Shown here: piece after piece, positions 2,891-30,177 of the stretch
Layout: every line of letters begins with the position of its first letter
Position numbering within the stretch: position 1 is the stretch's first letter
Assembly: GCF_001457615.1 (NCBI RefSeq)
Contig: NZ_LN831024.1
Coordinates: 5,850,001 to 5,882,000, forward strand
Length of the DNA stretch: 32,000 bases
Direction of reading: 5' to 3'
DNA from: Pseudomonas aeruginosa
GTDB taxonomy: Bacteria > Pseudomonadota > Gammaproteobacteria > Pseudomonadales > Pseudomonadaceae
The notes under the pieces: model-generated
Databases searched by the model: none
The model's input: the letters and a program-made list of their open reading frames with translations, nothing else
Told to the model about the DNA's origin: nothing
Made by a program: the position numbers and the translations under genes

Positions 2891-4111
2891 GTGTCCGAAA
2901 CCTTCCCGTTCCTCACTGGCGACGCCCTGTCGCAGCGCTTCCTCGCGCTGGACGCGTTCCTCCTCGAACACCAGCGGCTCTGGCGACCCCGCCCGTTCAG
3001 CGAACCGACCCTGGCGTGGGAAGCCGAACACACCGAGCTGGCGTCCTGGCTGCGCGGGCGCAGCCTCGAACAGGCCGACGCGGAGCACAACCAGCCCACC
3101 CGCCTGGCCGCGCCCGCGCCTTATCCGCAGCTCGCCGCCCAAGCCGCGGCGCTGGGCGCGGTCGGCGAACTGCCATTGGCGGAACGCCCGCAGGCACCGA
3201 ACCGCTTCAACGTCGACGTACCGGGACGCAAGTGGCAGCAGATCGGCCTGTTCGCCGGGCGCCTGCAGTTCGCCCGGCCGGTCGTCCACTGGCTCGACTG
3301 GTGCTCCGGCAAGGGCCATCTGGGCCGCCTGCTGGCCCATGCGGGGCAACCGCTGACCTGCCTCGAACACGATCCCGCGCTGGTCGCCGACGGACAGCGC
3401 CTGAGCGACCGCCTGGGGCTCTCCGCCCACCACCTCCGCCAGGATGTGCTGGCCGCGGACTGCGCCGAGCGCCTGCTTCCCGGGCATACGCCAGTGGCCC
3501 TGCACGCTTGCGGCGAACTGCACCTGCGCCTGCTGCGCCTGGCCAGCCAGGCCGGCTGTCGCCAACTGGCGGTGGCGCCATGCTGCTACAACCGCATTCC
3601 GGGGCCTTTCTACCAGCCACTCTCGCAAACAGCAGGCCGATCGCTGCTCGCGCTATCGCTTGACGACCTGCGCCTGCCCCTGAGCGAGACAGTCACCGCC
3701 AGCCAACGGGTCCGTCGCCAGCGCGACCAGTCGATGGCCCGGCGCCTGGGTTTCGACCTGCTGCAGCGCGAGCTACGCGGAATCGACCAGTACCTCAGCG
3801 TGCCTTCCCTTCCGGTGGCCTGGCTGGAACGTCCATACGCCGACTACTGTCGCGAACTCGCCGCCCTCAAGGGACTTCCCGAACCGGCCGCGCGCGACTG
3901 GCAGGCGCTGGAAGCGGCCGGCTGGAAGCGCCTGGCGATGGTTCGCAACCTGGAACTGGTGCGCGCCCTGTTCCGCCGCCCGCTGGAACTCTGGCTGCTG
4001 CTGGACCGCTGCCTGTATCTGGTCGAACAGGGCTATAGCGTCCGCCTGGGCGAGTTCTGTCCGACCTCCCTGTCTCCGCGAAACCTGCTGATCCTTGCGG
4101 AGCGCAGCTGA
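2891..4111 (+). CDS. Conserved hypothetical protein, putative SAM-dependent methyltransferase (Methyltransf_32/METTL25-like)
   Basis: 406-aa ORF starting at GTG 2891. The motif LDWCSGKGHLGRLLA resembles the G-x-G-type SAM-binding motif I of that family. Function is not otherwise recognisable. Position matches PA5156. Confidence 0.6.
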   Translation: MSETFPFLTGDALSQRFLALDAFLLEHQRLWRPRPFSEPTLAWEAEHTELASWLRGRSLEQADAEHNQPTRLAAPAPYPQLAAQAAALGAVGELPLAERPQAPNRFNVDVPGRKWQQIGLFAGRLQFARPVVHWLDWCSGKGHLGRLLAHAGQPLTCLEHDPALVADGQRLSDRLGLSAHHLRQDVLAADCAERLLPGHTPVALHACGELHLRLLRLASQAGCRQLAVAPCCYNRIPGPFYQPLSQTAGRSLLALSLDDLRLPLSETVTASQRVRRQRDQSMARRLGFDLLQRELRGIDQYLSVPSLPVAWLERPYADYCRELAALKGLPEPAARDWQALEAAGWKRLAMVRNLELVRALFRRPLELWLLLDRCLYLVEQGYSVRLGEFCPTSLSPRNLLILAERS

Positions 4112-4455
4112 TACGGGTGTTCCGGATGGTTGCCCACACAACCTGTGGATAAGTCTGGTGACAAGTTCTGGGAAACATCTGCCGAGGGGCCCGTATCCAG
4201 GGGCGGTCAATGCTGTTCAAAAAATGAACAGAAAAAATAAAATCCATATAAAACAATATCTTGATAACAACCGAGATAACCGCAGCGATTCTTAGAGCGT
4301 TTCCTTCCTATCCCTTGCCCACTTGTGCATAAGCCTGGCTTTCCGGTTAATCCGAAAGTGGACTTCAGCACCGACAATAGTTGCAAAACGGCATCGTATG
4401 ACGTTCGAAGGAACGGATTGTTCTTTTATTGCAACGGTTGAGCTCTTGTTAATCG

Positions 4456-4500
4456 CTGCCTAGGCAGTATTATTTTGAAACACTTTCCCTGCCTAGACAG
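4456..4500. promoter_or_regulatory. Pair of MarR-type operator palindromes upstream of the MarR/efflux operon
   Basis: Perfect 12-bp palindrome CTGCCTAGGCAG (4456-4467). A one-mismatch copy CTGCCTAGACAG lies at 4489-4500, 33 bp apart, ending 15 bp before the MarR ATG (4515). Confidence 0.55.
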
Positions 4501-4514
4501 CGATCCCCTCCACC

Positions 4515-4985
4515 ATGGGTCACTACAGCGCCTCCGACTTTCCCTTCAAGGGCTCCATTGGCCAGCTCATCGGCGTCAGTGCCGCGACCAAGGACCGCAT
4601 CCTCGAGAAGCACCTCGCCGCGCTGGACATAACCGCCGCCCAGTTCAAGGTGCTGATCTTCGTCGGTCTCAACCGTGCCAACAGTCCGGTCGAACTGTGT
4701 CGCGAGCTGTCGGTGGACAGCGGCTCGATGACTCGCATGCTGACGCGCCTGGAGAAAAAAGGGCTGCTGCTGCGCGGCCGCTGTCCCGAAGACCGCCGTT
4801 GCCTGCGCCTGGATCTCAGCGAAGCGGGACGGAAGGTCCAGGAGCAGCTTCCGCTGATCGCCTCGGCGGCGATGAACGAGCTGGTCGCCTGCCTGAGCAC
4901 GGAAGAATTGCAGACGCTGACCCATCTGCTGACCAAGGTTCTGCTACACGCCGGCTGCCCGCGGGCCAGCCTGCAGGAGTCCTGA
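4515..4985 (+). CDS. MarR-family transcriptional regulator
   Basis: 156-aa ORF of typical MarR size, with a winged-HTH region (ELCRELSVDSGSMTRMLTRLEKKGLL). It is the first gene of the efflux cluster. Position matches PA5157. Confidence 0.85.
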   Translation: MGHYSASDFPFKGSIGQLIGVSAATKDRILEKHLAALDITAAQFKVLIFVGLNRANSPVELCRELSVDSGSMTRMLTRLEKKGLLLRGRCPEDRRCLRLDLSEAGRKVQEQLPLIASAAMNELVACLSTEELQTLTHLLTKVLLHAGCPRASLQES

Positions 4986-4988
4986 TCC

Positions 4989-6467
4989 ATGCCCTTCCCT
5001 CCTCTCCATCCCTGGCCGCAGCGATTGGCGCTGGCCTCGGCGATACTGCTGGCCGCCGGCTGCGTCACTTCCGAAGGCCTGGAACCGAACGCCCGCCCGC
5101 AACCGGCAGGCGCCCTCCAGGCGGGGAGGAGCCTGGAAGGCGTAGCCCTTTCGCCAGCGGCCTGGCCGCGCCAGGACTGGTGGACCGGGCTCGGCGACCG
5201 GCAGCTCGACCAACTGATCGGCGAAGCCCTGCAAGGCACCCCCGACCTGCAGATCGCCGAGGCGCGTGCGCGCCAGGCGGCGGCAACGGCCCAGGCGCAA
5301 GATGCCGCGCGCCAGCCGACGCTGGACGCCAAGGCCAGCTACTCCGGCATCCGCGCGCCGACCAGCGTGGCCCCGGCACCGCTCGGCGGCCGCTATTCGG
5401 CGATCAAGTACCTGTCGCTCGGCTTCAACTACGACTTCGACCTCTGGGGCGGCGAGCGCGCCGCCTGGGAAGCCGCCCTCGGCCAGGCCAATGCCGCCCG
5501 GATCGACAGCCAGGCCGCGCGCATCGGCCTCTCGGCGAGCATCGCCCGCGCCTACAGCGACCTCGCCCACGCCTTTACCGTGCGCGATCTCGCCGAGGAA
5601 GAACTGAAGCGCTCGCAGCGCATGACCGAGCTGAGCCAGAAGCGCATGAGCGCCGGACTCGACAGCAAGGTCCAGCTGCAACAGACGCAGACCCAACTGG
5701 CCACCGCCCGCCAGCAGCTCAGCGCCGCCGAGCAGGACATCGCCAGCGCCCGCATCGCCCTCGCCGTGCTGCTGGGCAAGGGGCCCGATCGCGGTCTCGA
5801 ACTGCAGCGCCCGCAACCGCTGGACCCGGCCAGCCTGAGCCTGCCCTCGGTGCTCCCGGCGGAACTGCTCGGCCGCCGCGCCGACATCGTTGCCGCGCGC
5901 TGGCGGGTCGAGGCGGCGCGCCGCAACATCGACTCGGCGAAGACCGAGTTCTATCCCAACCTCAATCTCGGCGCGATGGCCGGCCTCGCCGCCCTGCACA
6001 CCAGCGACGTGTTGCAGGCGCCGAGCCGCTTCTTCCAGGTGGCGCCGGCGATCTCCCTGCCGATCTTCGACGGTGGCCGCCGCCGCGCCAACCTGGCCGA
6101 ACGCGACGCCGACTACGACCTGGCCGTCGGCCAGTACAACAAGACGCTGGTCCAGGCCCTCGGCGAGGTCAGCGACGACCTCGGCAAGTTGCGCTCCCTG
6201 GAGCAGCAGGTGATCGACCAGCGCCAGGCCCGCGATATCGCCAGGTCCAACTTCGACCTGGCCATGCGTCGCTACGGCGAAGGCGTGGGCAGCTACCTCG
6301 ACGCCCTCAGCGTGCAACAGCAACTGCTGGTCGCCGAACGCCAGCTGGCCAGCCTGGAGAGCCAGCAGATCGATCTTTCCGTCCAGCTGGTCCAGGCCCT
6401 GGGCGGCGGTTTCCAACCCGATTCCCGCTCCGCTGCGCTCGCTACCGCGAAAGCGCCGGCAGAATGA
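4989..6467 (+). CDS. opmG: Outer-membrane efflux lipoprotein, NodT/OprM family
   Basis: 492 aa with a lipobox (ILLAAGC). Coiled OMF repeats are typical of the OprM family. Its stop overlaps the next start (ATGA at 6464-6467). Position matches PA5158 (opmG). Confidence 0.85.
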   Translation: MPFPPLHPWPQRLALASAILLAAGCVTSEGLEPNARPQPAGALQAGRSLEGVALSPAAWPRQDWWTGLGDRQLDQLIGEALQGTPDLQIAEARARQAAATAQAQDAARQPTLDAKASYSGIRAPTSVAPAPLGGRYSAIKYLSLGFNYDFDLWGGERAAWEAALGQANAARIDSQAARIGLSASIARAYSDLAHAFTVRDLAEEELKRSQRMTELSQKRMSAGLDSKVQLQQTQTQLATARQQLSAAEQDIASARIALAVLLGKGPDRGLELQRPQPLDPASLSLPSVLPAELLGRRADIVAARWRVEAARRNIDSAKTEFYPNLNLGAMAGLAALHTSDVLQAPSRFFQVAPAISLPIFDGGRRRANLAERDADYDLAVGQYNKTLVQALGEVSDDLGKLRSLEQQVIDQRQARDIARSNFDLAMRRYGEGVGSYLDALSVQQQLLVAERQLASLESQQIDLSVQLVQALGGGFQPDSRSAALATAKAPAE

Positions 6468-7666
6468 ACGAGGCACCCACCATGACTACCGCCAACAGCG
6501 AAACCCCCGCCGGCAACCCGAAGCGCAAGCGCTGGTTGCTGATCCTGCTCGCCGTGATCGTCCTCGCCACCCTGGCCAGCGTGGCCTGGGAGTTCTTCTA
6601 CGGCCGCTGGCACGAGGACACCGACGACGCCTACATCAACGGCAACGTGGTACAGATCACCCCGCAGATCGTCGGCACCGTGGTCAGCATCGGCGCCGAC
6701 GACGGCGACCTGGTGCGCAAGGGCCAGGAACTGGTCAGGTTCGATCCCAGCGACGCCGACATCGCCCTCCAACGCGCCGAGGCCAACCTGGCCCACACCG
6801 TGCGCCAGGTGCGCGGGCTGTTCAGCAACGTCGACGGCTATCGCGCCGAGGTCGCCACCCGCAAGGTCGCGCTGGCCAAGGCCGAGGCCGACTACAAGCG
6901 GCGCAAGAACCTCGCCGACGACGGCGCCATTTCCCAGGAGGAACTGGCCCACGCCCGCGACGCCCTGGACAGCGCGAAAGCCTCGCTGACCAGCTCGGAA
7001 CAGCAGTTGAACACCAATCGCGCGCTGGTCGACGACACCCAGATCACCTCCCATCCGGACGTCAAGGCCGCCGCCGCGCAACTGCGCCAGGCCTACCTGG
7101 ACGACGCCCGCTCGACCATCGTCGCGCCGGTCACCGGCTACGTCGCCAAGCGCAGCGTACAGGTCGGCCAGCGCGTGCAACCGGGCAATGCGCTGATGGC
7201 CGTGGTCCCGCTGGACCAGATCTGGATCGACGCCAACTTCAAGGAAACCCAGCTCAAGCACATGCGTATCGGCCAGCCGGTGGAGATCCGCTCCGACCTC
7301 TACGGCAGCGACGTGCGCTACAGCGGCACCGTCGACAGCCTCGGCGTGGGCACCGGCAGCGCGTTCTCCCTGCTGCCGGCGCAGAACGCCACCGGCAACT
7401 GGATCAAGATCGTCCAGCGGGTGCCGGTGCGCATCCATATCGATCCGCAAGAATTGCAGAAGCATCCGCTGCGCATCGGCCTGTCGATGGACGTCAAGGT
7501 CGACCTGCACGACCAGAGCGGCCCGGCCCTGGCCCAGCAGCCACCGCGCGAAGCGCTGTTCTCCACCGATGTCTACCAGCAGCAACTGGCCTCGGCCGAC
7601 AAGCTGATCGAACGCCTGATCGAAGCCAACCTCGCCGAAGACCACGGCAAGACCGCCCAGCGTTGA
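6464..7666 (+). CDS. EmrA-like membrane fusion (periplasmic adaptor) protein
   Basis: Real start is at ATG 6464 (MNEAPTMTTANSE...) or ATG 6482. It has an N-terminal TM anchor (WLLILLAVIVLATLASVAW) and HlyD/EmrA-type coiled-coil and barrel segments. The upstream 2 kb of the listed 1063-aa ORF is a Pro/Arg/Gly-rich out-of-frame artefact over marR/opmG. Confidence 0.85.
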   Translation: MNEAPTMTTANSETPAGNPKRKRWLLILLAVIVLATLASVAWEFFYGRWHEDTDDAYINGNVVQITPQIVGTVVSIGADDGDLVRKGQELVRFDPSDADIALQRAEANLAHTVRQVRGLFSNVDGYRAEVATRKVALAKAEADYKRRKNLADDGAISQEELAHARDALDSAKASLTSSEQQLNTNRALVDDTQITSHPDVKAAAAQLRQAYLDDARSTIVAPVTGYVAKRSVQVGQRVQPGNALMAVVPLDQIWIDANFKETQLKHMRIGQPVEIRSDLYGSDVRYSGTVDSLGVGTGSAFSLLPAQNATGNWIKIVQRVPVRIHIDPQELQKHPLRIGLSMDVKVDLHDQSGPALAQQPPREALFSTDVYQQQLASADKLIERLIEANLAEDHGKTAQR

Positions 7667-7676
7667 GCCCGCCAGC

Positions 7677-9206
7677 ATGAGCGAAAGCAGCAGCTTCTCC
7701 CCGCCCAGCCTGGTGATGGCGACCATCGGCCTGTCCCTGGCGACTTTCATGCAGGTGCTCGACACCACCATCGCCAACGTCGCCCTGCCGACCATCTCCG
7801 GTAACCTCGGGGTGAGTTCGGAACAGGGCACCTGGGTGATCACCTCGTTCGCCGTGAGCAACGCCATCGCCCTGCCGCTGACCGGCTGGCTGGCCCGGCG
7901 GGTCGGCGAGGTGCGCCTGTTCATCGCCGCCGCGCTGCTGTTCGTACTCGCCTCGTTCCTCTGCGGCATCGCCCAGTCGATGCCTTCTCTGGTCGGCTTC
8001 CGCGCCTTGCAGGGCTTCGTCGCCGGGCCGCTGTATCCGATCACCCAGACCCTGCTGATCTCCATCTACCCACCGGCGAAGCGCGGCATGGCCCTGGCCC
8101 TGCTCGCGATGGTCACGGTGGTGGCGCCGATCGCCGGGCCGATCCTCGGCGGCTGGATCACCGACGACTACAGCTGGCCGTGGATCTTCTTCATCAACGT
8201 GCCGGTCGGCCTGTTCGCCGCCTTCGTCGTCTACCAGCAACTGAAGGCACGCCCGGTGGTGATCAAGAAGGCGCCGATGGACTACGTCGGCCTGATCGCC
8301 CTGGTGATCGGCGTCGGCGCCCTGCAGATCGTCCTCGACAAGGGCAACGACCTGGACTGGTTCGAGTCGAACTTCATCGTCGGCGGCGCGCTGATCGCGG
8401 CGATCGCCCTGGCCTTCTTCATCATCTGGGAATTCACCGACCGCCATCCGATCGTCAACCTGCGCCTGTTCGCCCACCGCAACTTCGCCGCCGGCACCCT
8501 GGCGCTGGTGCTGGGCTATGCCGCGTTCTTCGGCATCAACCTGCTGCTCCCGCAATGGCTACAGACCCAGATGGGCTACACCGCCACCTGGGCCGGGCTG
8601 GCCGCCGCGCCAATCGGCATCCTCCCGGTGTTCCTCTCGCCGCTGGTCGGCCGCTACGCCAACCATTTCGACCTGCGCATGCTCGCCGGCCTGTCGTTCC
8701 TGGCGATGGCCATCACCTGCTTCATGCGCGCCAACTTCACCACCGAGGTCGACTACCAGCACATCGCCATCGTGCAGTTGATCATGGGGCTCGGCGTGGC
8801 GTTCTTCTTCATGCCGATCCTGAGCATCCTGCTCTCCGACCTGCCCCCCGACCAGATCGCCGATGGCTCCGGCCTGGCCACCTTCCTGCGCACCCTCGGC
8901 GGCAGCTTCGCCGCCTCGCTGACCACCTGGATCTGGAACCGCCGCGCCACGCAACACCACGCCTACCTCAGCGAAAACATCAGCCTCTACGACCCGGCCA
9001 CCCACGAAACCCTCGCCCAGCTCGGCGGCAACACCCAGGCGAACGCGGCGCTGCTCGACCGGATGGTGCAGAGCCAGGCCTACATGATGTCCACCATCGA
9101 CTACTTCACCATGCTCGGCTGGCTGTTCCTCGCCCTGCTGGTGATCATCTGGCTGGCCCGCCCGCCGTTCGGCGCCAAGCCCGGCGCGGCCGCCTCCGGG
9201 CACTGA
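7677..9206 (+). CDS. EmrB/QacA-type MFS drug efflux transporter (14-TM DHA2 family)
   Basis: 509-aa polytopic ORF. The N-terminus is typical of EmrB (FMQVLDTTIANVALPTISGNLG). It follows the MFP gene. Position matches PA5160. Confidence 0.88.
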   Translation: MSESSSFSPPSLVMATIGLSLATFMQVLDTTIANVALPTISGNLGVSSEQGTWVITSFAVSNAIALPLTGWLARRVGEVRLFIAAALLFVLASFLCGIAQSMPSLVGFRALQGFVAGPLYPITQTLLISIYPPAKRGMALALLAMVTVVAPIAGPILGGWITDDYSWPWIFFINVPVGLFAAFVVYQQLKARPVVIKKAPMDYVGLIALVIGVGALQIVLDKGNDLDWFESNFIVGGALIAAIALAFFIIWEFTDRHPIVNLRLFAHRNFAAGTLALVLGYAAFFGINLLLPQWLQTQMGYTATWAGLAAAPIGILPVFLSPLVGRYANHFDLRMLAGLSFLAMAITCFMRANFTTEVDYQHIAIVQLIMGLGVAFFFMPILSILLSDLPPDQIADGSGLATFLRTLGGSFAASLTTWIWNRRATQHHAYLSENISLYDPATHETLAQLGGNTQANAALLDRMVQSQAYMMSTIDYFTMLGWLFLALLVIIWLARPPFGAKPGAAASGH

Positions 9207-9279: not shown

Positions 9280-9355
<76 letters not shown>

Positions 9356-25443: not shown

Positions 25444-27351
25444 GTGATGTATCGACTACCGGTCATTGTTGGTTTCGGTGGCTACAACGCAGCAGGCCGT
25501 AGTTCCTTCCACCACGGCTTCCGCCGCATGGTCATCGAATCGATGGACCCGCAGGCGCGCCAGGAAACCCTAGCCGGCCTGGCGGTCATGATGAAACTGG
25601 TCAAGGCCGAAGGCGGCCGCTACCTGGCCGAAGACGGCACGCCGCTGTCCCCGGAGGACATCGAGCGGCGCTACGCCGAACGCATCTTCGCCTCTACCCT
25701 GGTGCGACGCATCGAACCGCAGTACCTCGACCCGGATGCAGTCCACTGGCACAAGGTCCTCGAGCTGTCCCCTGCCGAAGGCCAGGCGCTGACCTTCAAG
25801 GCCTCGCCCAAGCAACTGCCCGAGCCGCTGCCGGCCAACTGGACGATCGCTCCCGCGGAGGACGGCGAGGTGCTGGTGAGCATCCACGAGCGCTGCGAGT
25901 TCAAGGTGGACAGCTACCGTGCGCTGACGGTGAAGTCCGCCGGCCAGTTGCCCACCGGTTTCGAACCGGGCGAGCTGTACAACTCGCGCTTCCACCCGCG
26001 CGGCCTGCAGATGTCGGTGGTCGCCGCGACCGACGCGATCCGCTCCACCGGCATCGACTGGAAGACCATCGTCGACAACGTCCAGCCCGACGAGATCGCG
26101 GTATTCTCCGGCAGCATCATGAGCCAGCTCGACGACAACGGTTTCGGCGGCCTGATGCAATCCCGCCTGAAGGGCCACCGGGTCTCGGCCAAGCAACTGC
26201 CGCTGGGCTTCAACAGCATGCCCACCGATTTCATCAATGCCTACGTGCTCGGCAGCGTCGGCATGACCGGCAGCATCACAGGCGCCTGCGCCACCTTCCT
26301 CTACAACCTGCAGAAGGGTATCGACGTCATCACCAGCGGCCAGGCCCGGGTGGTCATCGTCGGCAACAGCGAGGCGCCGATCCTGCCGGAGTGCATCGAG
26401 GGCTACAGCGCCATGGGCGCACTGGCCACCGAAGAAGGCCTGCGCCTGATCGAAGGCCGCGACGACGTGGACTTCCGCCGCGCCAGCCGGCCTTTCGGCG
26501 AGAACTGCGGCTTCACCCTGGCCGAGTCCAGCCAATACGTAGTGCTGATGGACGACGAACTGGCCCTGCGCCTGGGCGCGGATATCCACGGCGCGGTAAC
26601 CGACGTGTTCATCAACGCCGACGGTTTCAAGAAGTCCATCTCCGCCCCCGGCCCGGGCAACTACCTGACGGTAGCCAAGGCGGTGGCCAGCGCGGTGCAG
26701 ATCGTCGGCCTGGACACCGTGCGCCACGCCAGCTTCGTCCACGCCCACGGCTCCAGCACGCCGGCCAACCGGGTCACCGAATCGGAAATCCTCGACCGCG
26801 TGGCCAGCGCCTTCGGCATCGACGGCTGGCCGGTCACCGCGGTGAAGGCCTACGTCGGCCACTCCCTGGCCACCGCCAGCGCCGATCAACTGATTTCCGC
26901 CCTGGGCACCTTCAAGTACGGCATCCTCCCTGGGATCAAGACCATCGACAAGGTCGCCGACGACGTCCACCAGCAGCGCCTGAGCATCTCCAATCGCGAC
27001 ATGCGCCAGGACAAGCCGCTGGAGGTGTGCTTCATCAACTCCAAGGGCTTCGGCGGCAACAACGCCAGCGGCGTGGTGCTGTCGCCGCGAATCGCCGAGA
27101 AGATGCTGCGCAAGCGCCATGGCCAAGCGGCCTTCGCCGCCTACGTCGAGAAGCGCGAGCAGACCCGCGCCGCCGCCCGCGCCTACGACCAGCGCGCGCT
27201 GCAGGGCGACCTGGAGATCATCTACAACTTCGGCCAGGACCTGATCGACGAACACGCCATCGAGGTCAGCGCCGAACAGGTGACGGTGCCCGGCTTCAGC
27301 CAGCCGCTGGTATACAAGAAGGACGCGCGTTTCAGTGACATGCTCGACTGA
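25444..27351 (+). CDS. fabY: FabY-type beta-ketoacyl-ACP synthase (initiating KAS of P. aeruginosa)
   Basis: 635-aa ORF from GTG 25444 (the ATG at 25447 is an alternative start), with AAGGAG at 25431-25436. It has a KAS I/II-like fold with active-site Cys in GSITGACATF and His motifs HAHGSSTP and VGHSL. Position matches PA5174. Confidence 0.88.
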   Translation: MMYRLPVIVGFGGYNAAGRSSFHHGFRRMVIESMDPQARQETLAGLAVMMKLVKAEGGRYLAEDGTPLSPEDIERRYAERIFASTLVRRIEPQYLDPDAVHWHKVLELSPAEGQALTFKASPKQLPEPLPANWTIAPAEDGEVLVSIHERCEFKVDSYRALTVKSAGQLPTGFEPGELYNSRFHPRGLQMSVVAATDAIRSTGIDWKTIVDNVQPDEIAVFSGSIMSQLDDNGFGGLMQSRLKGHRVSAKQLPLGFNSMPTDFINAYVLGSVGMTGSITGACATFLYNLQKGIDVITSGQARVVIVGNSEAPILPECIEGYSAMGALATEEGLRLIEGRDDVDFRRASRPFGENCGFTLAESSQYVVLMDDELALRLGADIHGAVTDVFINADGFKKSISAPGPGNYLTVAKAVASAVQIVGLDTVRHASFVHAHGSSTPANRVTESEILDRVASAFGIDGWPVTAVKAYVGHSLATASADQLISALGTFKYGILPGIKTIDKVADDVHQQRLSISNRDMRQDKPLEVCFINSKGFGGNNASGVVLSPRIAEKMLRKRHGQAAFAAYVEKREQTRAAARAYDQRALQGDLEIIYNFGQDLIDEHAIEVSAEQVTVPGFSQPLVYKKDARFSDMLD

Positions 27352-27366
27352 GCGCCACCACAACGG

Positions 27367-27393
27367 AAAAGGCCCGGCTAGACCGGGCCTTTT
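27367..27393. terminator. Bidirectional intrinsic terminator after fabY
   Basis: aaaa-ggcccgg (27371-27377), loop ctaga, ccgggcc (27383-27389)-tttt. It is A/T-flanked on both sides. Confidence 0.8.
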
Positions 27394-27440
27394 CGTTTCA
27401 GTGCAGCGCGCGCCAGTTGGATCAGCTCGCTGCGCCACTC
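27394..27440. repeat. Direct repeat copy A: orphan copy of the cysQ 3' end (attL-like)
   Basis: The 47-nt cgtttcagtgcagcgcgcgccagttggatcagctcgctgcgccactc is identical to 28789-28837 except for one GC dinucleotide unit. Confidence 0.9.
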
Positions 27441-27473
27441 GGCGAGCCTATCTGGATGCGCTGGATCAGGTGA

Positions 27474-27671
27474 TGGCCAGTTCCAGCGTTTCACCGACAG
27501 CCGCTGGAAGTTCACGGGTACGATGCCGATCTGGACTTCCAGCGTCTCATGGAGGAACAAACAGCGACGAGGTTCCTGGCGGAACTGAAAAAGCACCGAT
27601 CGGCCAATTTTGACATCAAGCTCCACGGTGAAGCTCCCATTGAGTTATCAGGCACTGGATATCCGTTCTGA
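27474..27671 (+). pseudogene. 3' remnant (65 codons) of a colicin M-like lipid II-degrading bacteriocin gene, truncated at the islet boundary
   Basis: My own translation is WPVPAFHRQPLEVHGYDADLDFQRLMEEQTATRFLAELKKHRSANFDIKLHGEAPIELSGTGYPF*. There is no start codon, and an in-frame stop lies at 27471. By eye it aligns with the recalled colicin M C-terminus ...DDKYDFNASTHRGIIGESLTRLGAMFSGKEYQILLPGEIHIKESGKR. The alignment is supported by YD-x5-[H/Q]R, TR 8-9 residues later, and [Y/F]xIxLxGExxIxxSG near the end. Confidence 0.5.
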
Positions 27672-27681
27672 TAGCCCCTCG

Positions 27682-27710
27682 AAACACCTATTTATTGACA
27701 GGTGTTTTCT
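27682..27710 (+). terminator. Hairpin terminator for the remnant gene, overlapping the 3' end of the convergent membrane-protein gene
   Basis: aaacacct (27682-27689) pairs with aggtgttt (27700-27707), with a 10-nt loop, followed by tct. Confidence 0.5.
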
Positions 27711-28389
27711 CATCGCTGGAGGAAAGCACATAGTAAAAAAATACGAACCCCAGCCATAGGGGAAGCATTGCCTCATAATCCCCACTGAAAAAAGAGCAGG
27801 CAAACCCTACCAGCCAAACCGCAAGAAGAATTCCACTCAACACCTGTGTGGTCTTACTGCGAAATATCAGTCCTCCAGAGGTACTACGCCAACCTATAAT
27901 CAGCAACGGCAGGAGCATAAAACAGACGGCAAAAGCGACCGCACAAGAGACAAACCAGGCAACTACTATATTGTCCCTCCACGTTGGATACAGCATTCTA
28001 TCCAGACTTAAAGAGGTTGCTAAAACTTCTGAAAGCACAATGGAAACTGGAGTCGCCAAATAGAGAAAAACCAAAAGCACACGACTTCTCCTCACGACTA
28101 CCGGAGATGGCAGAAAGAATATAGCGAGCGCCAAAATAAGCGCACAAATCGAATACCGCTCCAGATAGATCTTATCGGTAAGCTGCCGGAACAACTCGTC
28201 TTGAAATTTCTCTTCAGCGGTCAGTCTTGAAGCATAGTCATTCATATTCTCAGGATAGATATCTGCCAACACCTCAGAGCTTTTCAAAACATCCATACCC
28301 AGCGAAGCTGAGAATAGATAAATCGATACGCTCGCCATCACAGCCGCAGCTAAAACACGAAAACGATAGATCGATGGATATGTTGGCAT
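27688..28389 (-). CDS. Integral membrane protein with 6 predicted TM helices and no recognisable family; candidate orphan bacteriocin immunity protein
   Basis: ATG at 28389 (MPTYPSIYRFR...) is preceded by GGGAGGG. The listed TTG start at 28404 is less likely. 233 aa. I count six hydrophobic segments, with Arg/Lys-rich loops (RFR, RRSR, RSTSGGLIFRSK) on alternate sides and a ~50-aa acidic loop after TM1. GC is clearly lower than the flanks. It is convergent with the ColM-like remnant. Confidence 0.75.
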   Translation of the reverse strand: MPTYPSIYRFRVLAAAVMASVSIYLFSASLGMDVLKSSEVLADIYPENMNDYASRLTAEEKFQDELFRQLTDKIYLERYSICALILALAIFFLPSPVVVRRSRVLLVFLYLATPVSIVLSEVLATSLSLDRMLYPTWRDNIVVAWFVSCAVAFAVCFMLLPLLIIGWRSTSGGLIFRSKTTQVLSGILLAVWLVGFACSFFSGDYEAMLPLWLGFVFFYYVLSSSDEKTPVNK

Positions 28390-28716
28390 AGCGCCCTCCC
28401 GCAAACGCGAGAACTCTACGCTCTACATGCTCTCCCCGTGTGCGATTACGATGGAGTTTTCATGGAGCCCATGATCCTCCCCAGGCTTCGGAAAAAATCA
28501 CACAGGAACTTACTCAGGCGCCACCCCTATCGGCACCGGCCGACAGCTCAACGAAAAGCCCCGCTCATACGGTCATGCCGTTCACCAAAGTGAATATTTG
28601 ATGAGCCACTACCGAATCCCGCTGTCAGTCATCTGCTGCGGGCTATTTGCATGTTTTCTGTCAGCCCGAGCGGGCAAAACATCGTAATCTCCCATAGAGA
28701 CCAGAAAACAGATCAG

Positions 28717-28755
28717 AAAAACGCCGCGCCCCCATTGGGGTGCGGCGTTTTTCTT
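28717..28755. terminator. Bidirectional intrinsic terminator supplied by the islet; now terminates cysQ
   Basis: 12-bp stem acgccgcgcccc (28721-28732) / ggggtgcggcgt (28737-28748), with a 4-nt loop. It is flanked by aaaa upstream and tttttctt downstream. Confidence 0.8.
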
Positions 28756-28788
28756 AAGTAAACAGCATTAGGGTTCGACCAGCTCTTC

Positions 28789-28837
28789 CGTTTCAGTGCA
28801 GCGCGCGCGCCAGTTGGATCAGCTCGCTGCGCCACTC
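28789..28837. repeat. Direct repeat copy B: functional cysQ 3' end (attR-like)
   Basis: This 49-nt copy of 27394-27440 carries (GC)5 at 28801-28810, versus (GC)4 at 27406-27413 in copy A. It includes the cysQ stop codon (28793-28795). Confidence 0.9.
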
Positions 28838-29614
28838 AGCAGCGCGCGGCAGGGCCAGGAAGGAGCCGTTGAGGTAGTCCTCGCGCGGCTCGTAGGTGAA
28901 TGGCGCGCCATGCAGGTCGAGCACCTCGCCGCCGGCGCCTTCCAGCACACCCTGGGCGGCGGCCGTGTCCCATTGCGAGGTTGGCGTCAGGCGCGGATAG
29001 CAGTCGGCAGCGCCCTCGGCCAGCAGGCAGAACTTCAGCGAACTGCCGATGCTGGCTCGCCGCAGGTCGCCGAAGCGCTCGCTCAAGCCATCCAGCAGGC
29101 GCTCCTGGGCCGGGCTGCCATGGCGCTTGCTGGCCACCACGGTGAAGGCCTCCTCGGGCTCCAGGCGCACACTGATCGGTTGCGCGCGGCCATCGGCCTC
29201 CTCGCGCCAGGCACCGAGACCGGCGCCACCGTAGTAGCAGCGGCCGCTCACCGGCACGCCGACCAGACCGAACAGCACCCGGCCATCCTCGACCAGGGCC
29301 ACGTTGACGGTGAACTCCTCGCTACCGGAGATGAACTCCTTGGTGCCGTCCAGCGGGTCCACCAGCCACCAGCGCCGCCAGTGGCCGCGCTCGCTCAGCG
29401 GTATCTCGCAATCCTCTTCGGAAAGCACCGGAATGTCCGGCGCCAGCGCCCGCAACCCCGCCTCCAATATATGGTGCGCGGACAGGTCGGCGGCGGTAAC
29501 CGGCGATTCGTCGGCCTTCGAGCGCACCGCCACGTCGGCGCGCCAGTGCGGCAGGATCGCCTCGCCGGCGCGCCGCACCAGCGCCACCAATTCGCCCCAG
29601 GGCACCGGCCTCAT
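28793..29614 (-). CDS. cysQ: 3'(2'),5'-bisphosphate nucleotidase
   Basis: Start at ATG 29614 (MRPVPWGELVALVRRAGEAIL...), overlapping the nudE stop (ATGA). 273 aa. IMPase-family motifs WLVDPLDGT and SLKFCLLAEG are present. The 5' extension of the listed 395-aa ORF overlaps nudE out of frame. Confidence 0.9.
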   Translation of the reverse strand: MRPVPWGELVALVRRAGEAILPHWRADVAVRSKADESPVTAADLSAHHILEAGLRALAPDIPVLSEEDCEIPLSERGHWRRWWLVDPLDGTKEFISGSEEFTVNVALVEDGRVLFGLVGVPVSGRCYYGGAGLGAWREEADGRAQPISVRLEPEEAFTVVASKRHGSPAQERLLDGLSERFGDLRRASIGSSLKFCLLAEGAADCYPRLTPTSQWDTAAAQGVLEGAGGEVLDLHGAPFTYEPREDYLNGSFLALPRAAEWRSELIQLARALH

Positions 29615-30177
29615 GCCTGGTACTCGCCGCGCTGGGTGAGCAGGTCGCGCACCAGGTACAGCGCGGCCAGGGCGCGGCCTTCGCTGAACTGGGCGTGCTG
29701 GGCCAGGCTCGACAGTTCGCGCAGGCTGATGCGATCGACGCCCATCGGCTCCGGCTCGTCGCCCGGCAGGCGCTCCTCGTAGAGGTCGCGCGCCAGCACC
29801 ACCTGGATGCGCTGGCTCATGTAGCCCGGCGACAGCGACAGTTCGGTGATGTGCTCCAGTTGCCGGGCACCGTAGCCCGCTTCCTCCTTGAGCTCGCGGT
29901 TGGCCGCCGCGAGGATGTCCTCGCCCGGCTCGACCAGGCCCTTGGGCAGCGACAACTGGTATTCGTCGACCCCGGCGCAATATTCCTCCACCAGCACCGC
30001 GTGCTCGGCATCGAGCATGGCCACCACCATCACCGCACCGTAGCCCTGGCCCTTGCCGACCAGACGCTCGTAGGTGCGCTCGACGCCATTGCTGAAGCGC
30101 AGTTGCAACTCCTCGACAGCGAACAGTCGGCTCTTCGCGACGATCTCGCTGGCGAGTACGGTGGGTTTCTGACGCAT
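29611..30177 (-). CDS. nudE: Nudix hydrolase (ADP compounds hydrolase NudE/YrfE-like)
   Basis: Start at ATG 30177 (MRQKPTVLASEIVAK...), with AAGGAG upstream. 188 aa. Nudix box GLVEPGEDILAAANRELKEEAGY. The nudE-yrfG neighbourhood is as in enterobacteria. Confidence 0.8.
   Translation of the reverse strand: MRQKPTVLASEIVAKSRLFAVEELQLRFSNGVERTYERLVGKGQGYGAVMVVAMLDAEHAVLVEEYCAGVDEYQLSLPKGLVEPGEDILAAANRELKEEAGYGARQLEHITELSLSPGYMSQRIQVVLARDLYEERLPGDEPEPMGVDRISLRELSSLAQHAQFSEGRALAALYLVRDLLTQRGEYQA

Follow-up and report, generated by a model that had tools for sequence, protein, structure and literature searches.

A probable orphan-immunity form of the pyocin M4 locus between fabY and cysQ in Pseudomonas aeruginosa

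Gene content of the fabY-cysQ interval

The stretch of DNA analysed here, hereafter referred to as the window, comprises 32,000 nucleotides of the chromosome of Pseudomonas aeruginosa (positions 5,850,001 to 5,882,000 of contig NZ_LN831024.1, assembly GCF_001457615.1). Between the convergent core genes fabY and cysQ, it carries an islet of 1342 bp (27444-28785) enclosed by two direct copies of the cysQ 3' end. The islet contains the remnant of a ColM-type toxin gene and, on the opposite strand, an intact gene for a membrane protein. We consider that it is very probably the pyocin M4 locus of P. aeruginosa, formed by the bacteriocin gene paeM4 and the immunity gene pmiC, in an orphan-immunity form. 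A first-pass annotation of the window had described the islet without recognising in it this published locus.

The toxin gene is reduced to a 3' stump. When aligned to the 342-aa Colicin_M protein encoded at the same site in another P. aeruginosa genome (GCA_052314515.1, designated L001), the stump accounts for codons 270-285 and 294-342 plus the stop codon. After conceptual repair of the 25-nt gap between the two segments, its product matches positions 211-279 of the 281 positions of the Pfam Colicin_M family (E 5e-6). Two deletions separate the stump from the intact gene. The first, with GGCCA pentamers at its ends, spans about 1.06 kb and eliminated the left arm of the island beyond its first 36 bp, the promoter region and codons 1-269; the two BLAST segments of the window against L001 overlap by 5 nt at 27475-27479. 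The second, of 25 nt between GTACG pentamers, removed codons 286-293, shifted the frame and took out part of the DxYDx5(Q/H)R catalytic motif. What is left is not an intact 342-aa Colicin_M toxin gene: it has neither start codon nor promoter, and its frame is broken. Judged by its sequence, the window is a degenerate member of this group, that is, a pyocin M4 locus without the toxin. The truncated gene had initially been read as cut at the left junction of the element. This is not so, as 36 bp of the left end of the island (27444-27479) survive and the loss is an internal deletion.

The membrane-protein gene, which we call pmiC, is complete. Its mechanically called open reading frame (ORF) begins at a TTG codon (28404), and a GGGAGGG Shine-Dalgarno sequence stands 5-6 nt ahead of the ATG codon at 28389. 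The protein shows six hydrophobic segments by hydropathy. An AlphaFold2 model with six long helices was obtained at low confidence (pLDDT 60, pTM 0.43), and a structural fold search was dropped because the model was too poor. Searches of Pfam, NCBIfam and PDB sequences with the membrane protein and with the toxin stump as it stands returned nothing significant and, for this reason, the genes of the islet were identified from their genomic context. The window protein is 75% identical at the amino acid level to the product of a 232-aa gene located downstream of, and opposite to, the intact paeM4 gene of L001. With about 232 aa, six helices and a position downstream of the toxin stump on the opposite strand, it has the architecture of PmiC. 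Moreover, the islet combines an intact immunity ORF with a toxin remnant, and the intact pair occupies the syntenic site in other genomes, as in an orphan immunity locus.

All close homologues of the window PmiC come from P. aeruginosa. The exact protein occurs on at least 999 contigs, where public records label the gene 'hypothetical protein', and in the listed members of its cluster the ORF is intact. Only three remote homologues from beyond the P. aeruginosa cluster were found in 1.84 billion representatives. The closest relative outside the cluster, at 41% identity, is encoded in Pseudomonas nicosulfuronedens (OZ345275.1; L095, 8001-8711) by a lone gene of 47-50% GC, compared with about 57% around it. 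This gene lies in a variable region, next to genes for a PhdYeFM-type antitoxin and a large UvrD-helicase/Peptidase_M78 protein. No ColM remnant was detectable near it, and it may be another orphan immunity gene.

The two copies of the cysQ 3' end measure 53 nt (27391-27443) and 55 nt (28786-28840), slightly more than the 47 and 49 bp of the first-pass annotation, which was right in describing them as direct repeats. An indel of 2 bp (GC) and two mismatches set them apart, and their 38-nt core occurs exactly twice in the window, against none expected from 100 shuffles. The coordinates also agree with the arrangement first described: the left copy is detached from cysQ and adjoins the bidirectional fabY/cysQ terminator hairpin, and the right copy is the genuine end of cysQ, with the stop codon at 28793-28795. 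In L001, the flanking repeat is 56 nt long and its copies are 100% identical. The lower GC content reported for the insert is likewise real. The islet has 49.3% GC compared with 65.9% in fabY, 70.8% in cysQ and 65.1% in the whole window, and nowhere else in the 32 kb does the composition dip as strongly. Within the left repeat, the (GC)n run (27405/27406) carries a 2-bp GC deletion both in an orphan lineage (the window and L009) and in a producer lineage (L010 and L014), and this deletion is missing from L001, L005, L007 and L011. The pattern suggests either recurrent slippage or recombination between haplotypes.

The features of the interval are collected in Table 1. The contents listed in the first-pass annotation (a truncated gene, an intact membrane-protein gene, non-coding DNA and a bidirectional terminator) are all there, and the DNA without a credible ORF amounts to about 380 bp. 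The hairpin between the toxin stump and pmiC has as its counterpart in L001 a 13-nt perfect inverted repeat. Beyond this intergenic hairpin there is a second strong one (28715-28754), contained in a 96-nt segment (28700-28795) that folds at -39.5 kcal/mol (z -4.8). Both sequence and folding show that the island provides cysQ with a regenerated 3' end and a new terminator, in line with the earlier proposal that the element carries a replacement end of its target gene. An Rfam search of positions 27200-29000 at a permissive threshold gave only sub-threshold chance matches.

Table 1. Features of the fabY-cysQ interval, in window coordinates
Feature	Coordinates	Strand	Evidence and remarks
fabY, PA5174-type beta-ketoacyl synthase, left core flank	25444..27351	+	635-aa ORF; Pfam ketoacyl-synt N and C domains
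Ancestral bidirectional fabY/cysQ terminator hairpin	27366..27390		-23 to -25 kcal/mol on both strands, z -4.7 and -5.6
Left direct repeat, displaced non-functional cysQ 3' end	27391..27443		Last 46 nt of cysQ, stop and ~7 nt; 2-bp GC deletion
Remaining 36 bp of the island left arm	27444..27479		Aligns to the first 36 bp past the left repeat of L001; closes with the GGCCA microhomology at which the larger deletion occurred
3' stump of a pyocin M4-type (ColM) toxin gene	27475..27671	+	Codons 270-285, 25-nt deletion and frameshift, codons 294-342; stop at 27669-27671
Hairpin between the convergent toxin stump and pmiC, weak bidirectional terminator	27681..27708		-12 to -15 kcal/mol, z -1.9 and -2.6
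pmiC (B-type), putative orphan ColM-immunity gene	27688..28389	-	233 aa, six predicted transmembrane helices; ATG at 28389
Island right arm, non-coding, upstream of pmiC	28390..28714		No credible ORF
Island-borne intrinsic terminator now serving cysQ	28715..28754	-	Arms of 18 nt with 94% complementarity; a U-run comes next on the minus strand
Right direct repeat, functional cysQ 3' end	28786..28840
cysQ, 3'(2'),5'-bisphosphate nucleotidase, right core flank, intact	28793..29614	-	273 aa; Pfam Inositol_P, E 3e-49; named CysQ in source records

Some further observations concern these features. In one orphan-type assembly (L007), an 18-bp deletion matching 28743-28760 of the window takes out the 3' arm of the island terminator downstream of cysQ, which could allow read-through from cysQ into pmiC. 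An 82-aa ORF on the minus strand (27378-27626) runs antisense to the toxin stump, ends within the left repeat and thereby borrows the residues AEWRSELIQLARA from the C-terminus of CysQ. Gene callers list this antisense ORF in public assemblies, with 82 aa in L009 and 76 aa in L005, L007 and L011. Rather than a true gene, it seems to be a side product of the rearrangement. Elsewhere in the window, and unrelated to the islet, there are an AT-rich intergenic stretch (4110-4470) upstream of a long ORF that starts near 4475, within a segment of 57% GC (4001-5000), and a tRNA-Thr(TGT) gene (9280-9355).

Empty, producer and orphan states of the site

The same site was compared in genomes that encode an identical CysQ, with 26 contigs read. 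The counts that follow combine the places shown individually with similar places that are not (16 + 5 + 4 = 25 places). In the empty state, found in four places (L006, L008, L012 and L013), there is a single copy of the 56-bp sequence and the cysQ stop codon lies 7 nt from the fabY/cysQ terminator hairpin. The orphan state, as in the window, was found in about 16 places. In the full state, found in about five places including L001, L010 and L014, the site holds a 2.43-kb island of 46% GC with both paeM4 and pmiC. In L001, the 342-aa Colicin_M gene (PF14859, E 2.6e-24) lies between fabY and cysQ and is convergent with pmiC; L010 and L014 have the same pair of a 342-aa PF14859 gene and a convergent membrane-protein gene within the same flanking repeat. 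The catalytic motif of the L001 protein reads D294-A-N-L-D-F-Q300-R301, and source records name the 342-aa ColM cluster 'lipid II-degrading bacteriocin'. The commonest PaeM4 occurs on at least 1000 contigs and a second variant on 375. Both occupied states are common.

These states bear on several earlier expectations. The segment had been proposed to be acquired and polymorphic, and the single-repeat sites found in genomes with identical CysQ demonstrate that it is; it is not core DNA shared by all P. aeruginosa genomes. Larger occupants had also been anticipated, carrying either an integrase or an intact bacteriocin gene. The bacteriocin gene is present in L001, L010 and L014, in an island that measures only 2.43 kb and lacks an integrase. 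The orphan layout of repeat and islet recurs in at least nine independent assemblies (L002-L005, L007, L009, L011, L097 and L098), so the assembly artefact that the first-pass annotation had allowed for is excluded. Altogether, the probability that the segment is either core DNA of odd composition or an artefact is practically nil, considering the empty sites next to identical CysQ genes, the same structure in many independent complete genomes and the absence of such a repeat from related species.

A near-exact match to the window is the complete genome L009 (CP006984.1, GCA_000583975.1), in which the whole fabY-cysQ interval differs by one alignment column (a 1-nt gap at 27352). The window probably stems from this clone or one closely related to it, and the accession series may be that of Liverpool-epidemic-strain-like isolates. 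Nine further places similar to L009 are not shown individually. Both deletions of the toxin gene are present in all nine other orphan-type assemblies examined, which differ only by single-nucleotide polymorphisms and small indels. Because all of them carry both deletions, the orphan haplotype arose once. On both sides of the site, the fabY and cysQ-nudE haplotypes are near-identical and do not sort by state, which argues that the states have been exchanged by homologous recombination.

A convergent fabY-cysQ arrangement is found in many species of Pseudomonas, Ectopseudomonas and Azotobacter and, from this distribution of sequences, it is ancestral. No duplication of the cysQ tail was found in 80 other Pseudomonadaceae loci. 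In other members of the family (L016-L094), the spacer between cysQ and fabY may be as short as tens of bases or exceed 5 kb, and a recurrent set of unannotated ORFs (about 150 aa, 261 aa and membrane-like, and 464 aa) is found in it at near-host GC. Since both its length and its ORFs vary without any cysQ-tail repeat, the spacer seems tolerant of changes in gene content across the family.

On the other hand, the orphan islet is not simply the producer island with a shortened toxin gene. Comparison of the producer haplotype (A; L001, reverse complement, 4667-6790) with the orphan haplotype (B; the window) gives 75-90% identity from 27444 to about 28478, including 75-80% between 28390 and 28478. 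Identity rises to 97-100% in the remainder of the right arm (28479-28785) and in both repeats. The divergence therefore begins exactly at the inner edge of the left repeat and ends about 90 bp upstream of pmiC. Because the right arm is near-identical in A and B, at least one boundary of the exchange was the work of ordinary homologous recombination.

The divergent block bears the mark of selection. Between the A and B alleles of pmiC, the ratio of nonsynonymous to synonymous divergence (dN/dS) is 0.26, with a dS of 0.48, which indicates purifying selection; for the stump against paeM4, dN/dS is 0.15 and dS 0.86. In view of these low ratios, most of the divergence would have accrued while both toxins were functional, and purifying selection on both toxins implies a once-functional B-type toxin. 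We infer from these comparisons that the orphan allele did not branch off recently from the producer allele of today, and that its ancestor was a diverged toxin/immunity variant. When 5.8 billion proteins were searched with PaeM4, a single P. aeruginosa cluster (99% identical) was returned. An intact B-type toxin was not found among the 15 inspected of the 99 sequences of this cluster, and all 14 members with a readable C-terminus carry A-type sequence.

In L001, about 115 nt upstream of the paeM4 start (7925-7945, minus strand), the sequence ATTGCCGTAT TTTGGCGTGT resembles two P-box units, for which the reported PrtN consensus is ATTGnn(n)GTnn(n) (PMC4905994). With one exact ATTGnnGT and one near-unit, the count is no higher than chance, and we did not retain the site as a candidate. 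The corresponding region is deleted in the window.

Origin of the flanking repeat

A 56-bp duplication of a gene 3' end is the product of site-specific integration and, equally, of a single-crossover (Campbell-type) insertion. We tentatively favour, at somewhat below even probability, a one-off insertion that required no dedicated recombinase, followed by ordinary homologous shuffling between strains. It could have occurred by RecA-mediated single crossover of circular DNA carrying a short cysQ 3' fragment, or by homology-facilitated illegitimate recombination. A single crossover duplicates exactly the shared homology, and the locus lacks mobility genes and terminal inverted repeats and has no mobile copies in other places. 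In addition, the three states lie on near-identical flanks, and the peak of divergence is confined to the toxin and immunity genes, with the arms homogenised. Against this account, 56 bp is short as a RecA substrate, no donor context was found, and the arms have no match in the cysQ-fabY spacers of other species. By sequence alone, this route is indistinguishable from integration at a true attachment (att) site.

The first-pass annotation had preferred the latter and proposed either the decayed stump of a larger element or a cassette mobilised in trans. According to this alternative, the cysQ 3' end is a true att site at which a small integrative element, or the stump of an integrase-bearing island, was moved by a recombinase acting in trans. 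A 56-bp repeat that regenerates the gene 3' end is the classic attL/attR picture, the empty sites are scar-free and, were the island circular, its non-coding arms of about 670 bp would come to lie beside the repeat. Moreover, the deeply diverged A and B cassettes occupy one and the same position and begin to differ precisely where the left repeat ends on its inner side. As in integrase-bearing islands and prophages located at gene 3' ends, there are direct repeats of the target 3' end, scar-free empty sites and a cargo of lower GC. Unlike in such elements, the PaeM4 cassette has no integrase or excisionase in any of its versions, measures only 2.4 kb and was not seen elsewhere, either circular or phage-borne.

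Several results make integration at an att site unlikely. The absence of integrase, excisionase and transposase genes, already noted for the islet, extends to the intact 2.43-kb island, in which the only genes called are those of toxin and immunity; no recombinase gene was found in the empty, orphan or full state. No occupant larger than this island appeared among the 26 contigs. Neither the island nor its att region occurs in any of 50,697 phage records or 72,556 plasmid records, and no attP-type junction was found in metagenome contigs, assembled contigs being a weak test for rare circles. The cassette is found at one site only and in P. aeruginosa only, and the 80 related-species loci show no duplication of the cysQ tail. 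Finally, the 97-100% identity of the right arm between A and B points to homologous exchange rather than to independent integrations. We therefore favour the single old insertion with recombinational shuffling over trans-mobilised site-specific integration, for which nothing positive was found beyond the repeat. Regarding the decayed stump, the islet is indeed a reduced form of a bacteriocin-bearing occupant, and a decayed integrase island has no backing other than the repeat.

Less probable still, in our opinion, is that the 56-bp repeat acts as a working recombination site at which integrase-less bacteriocin/immunity cassettes are swapped, through a recombinase encoded elsewhere or through the repeat itself. 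If true, this would explain how two diverged cassettes (dS 0.5-0.9) came to lie at one position, why their divergence starts at the edge of the repeat and why the empty sites are scar-free. As a corollary, the B-type orphan pmiC would be the only surviving trace of an extinct or unsampled PaeM4-like toxin variant.

We give very little credence to an origin by transposon or insertion sequence, with the repeat as a target-site duplication. A low-GC cargo between direct repeats would suit such an element, but 56 bp is far longer than known target-site duplications and the intact island of L001 has no terminal inverted repeats. There is also no transposase ORF or Pfam match in the window islet, nor among the genes called at the site in related genomes. 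A likeness of 20-27 nt between the left end of the island and positions 29797-29823 of the window raised the possibility of a nudE-derived end. It was marginal (E 0.085), showed no extension or continuation at the protein level, and was attributed to chance.

Relation to known bacteriocin systems and implications

In the published pyocin M4 system, PaeM4 has 342 aa and PmiC is a 232-aa protein with six transmembrane helices, encoded downstream on the opposite strand; the locus is chromosomal and restricted to P. aeruginosa (PMC5821083; PMC8469651). PaeM4 carries Gln-300 at the position of the catalytic His (PMC5626474). Toxins of the ColM type act in the periplasm, where they cleave lipid II, and protection against PaeM4 is provided by PmiC (PMC5821083; PMC8469651, citing Ghequire and Ozturk 2018). 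The locus described here agrees with the pyocin M4 locus of strain BL03 in species, gene-pair architecture, low GC and chromosomal location, and its intact relatives have the Gln-300 variant. It differs in that the toxin is a frameshifted 3' stump and the immunity allele is 75% identical to the producer-linked one.

Orphan immunity genes next to toxin remnants have been documented before. In Pseudomonas, orphan pmiA genes accompany pseuM remnants and their carriers have been described as 'cheaters' (PMC5277000). There too, a ColM toxin was lost by frameshift or partial deletion, the immunity gene was conserved and the intact pair is syntenic in related strains. Unlike the window protein, PmiA has about 137-142 aa and four transmembrane helices and is encoded on the same strand as the toxin; the two proteins are unrelated, and the six-helix protein of the window is encoded convergently. 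A second case is the S6-type orphan immunity gene of PAO1, which is preceded by a 250-nt 3' toxin remnant (PMC4905994). It shares with our locus the species and the presence of a 3' toxin stump of about 200-250 nt beside an intact immunity gene, a configuration read as deletion of the toxin with protection kept. In contrast, it concerns a nuclease pyocin with a cytoplasmic immunity protein at the toxA-PA1153 locus, and no core-gene-end repeat has been described for it.

Altogether, we propose the following sequence of events. The intact 2.4-kb island between fabY and cysQ would encode a lipid II-degrading bacteriocin of 342 aa and, on the opposite strand, an inner-membrane protector of about 232 aa with six helices. 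Two microhomology-mediated deletions would have destroyed the toxin gene and left the immunity gene intact. A cell that keeps PmiC without producing the toxin would, by virtue of this, resist the PaeM4-type bacteriocins of its neighbours. PaeM4 reportedly enters its target cells via the HxuC haem receptor. The 56-bp repeat may date from the original insertion, which would have duplicated the cysQ 3' end and brought in the replacement terminator. Since then, homologous recombination in the core genes on either side, and not active transposition or excision, might have swapped the empty, producer and orphan states from strain to strain.

Some points weigh against this interpretation. The link to PmiC of BL03 (Q057_04090) and to PaeM4 is drawn from protein size, gene architecture, the Pfam domain, the Gln-300 position and the species range, and would be correspondingly indirect. 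The structural model of PmiC is poor (pLDDT 60), and a scan for the sigma-70 consensus upstream of pmiC found no match that could serve as its promoter. Cross-protection against PaeM4 by a B-type PmiC that is 75% identical to the producer-linked protein is only a prediction. In addition, nothing that we found explains the origin of the 56-bp repeat, and a divergence that sets in at the very edge of the left repeat would also be compatible with two cassettes having entered this site separately.

The fabY-cysQ position, the 56-bp repeat, the diverged A/B block and the missing B-type toxin go unmentioned in the accessible literature on pyocin M4, which did not include the primary PmiC paper, and we claim no novelty for them. 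The locus is a known system in a known kind of degenerate state: a real, acquired segment that represents ordinary strain-to-strain variation and not a new mobile element. In this sense, it illustrates neatly how a bacteriocin polymorphism can comprise three states and a 'ghost' toxin allele, and present evidence gives no reason to define a new class of mobile elements. As regards annotation, a gene that is present in thousands of P. aeruginosa genomes should be named as a PmiC-type ColM immunity gene. Of 100 clinical isolates exposed to PaeM4, a pyocin put forward for therapy, 53 were killed, and strain PAO1 is also reported to be sensitive (PMC5626474). Carriers of an orphan pmiC, such as the strain studied here, are candidates for the PaeM4-resistant fraction, and scoring the locus as empty, producer or orphan could help to predict the susceptibility of P. 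aeruginosa to PaeM4.

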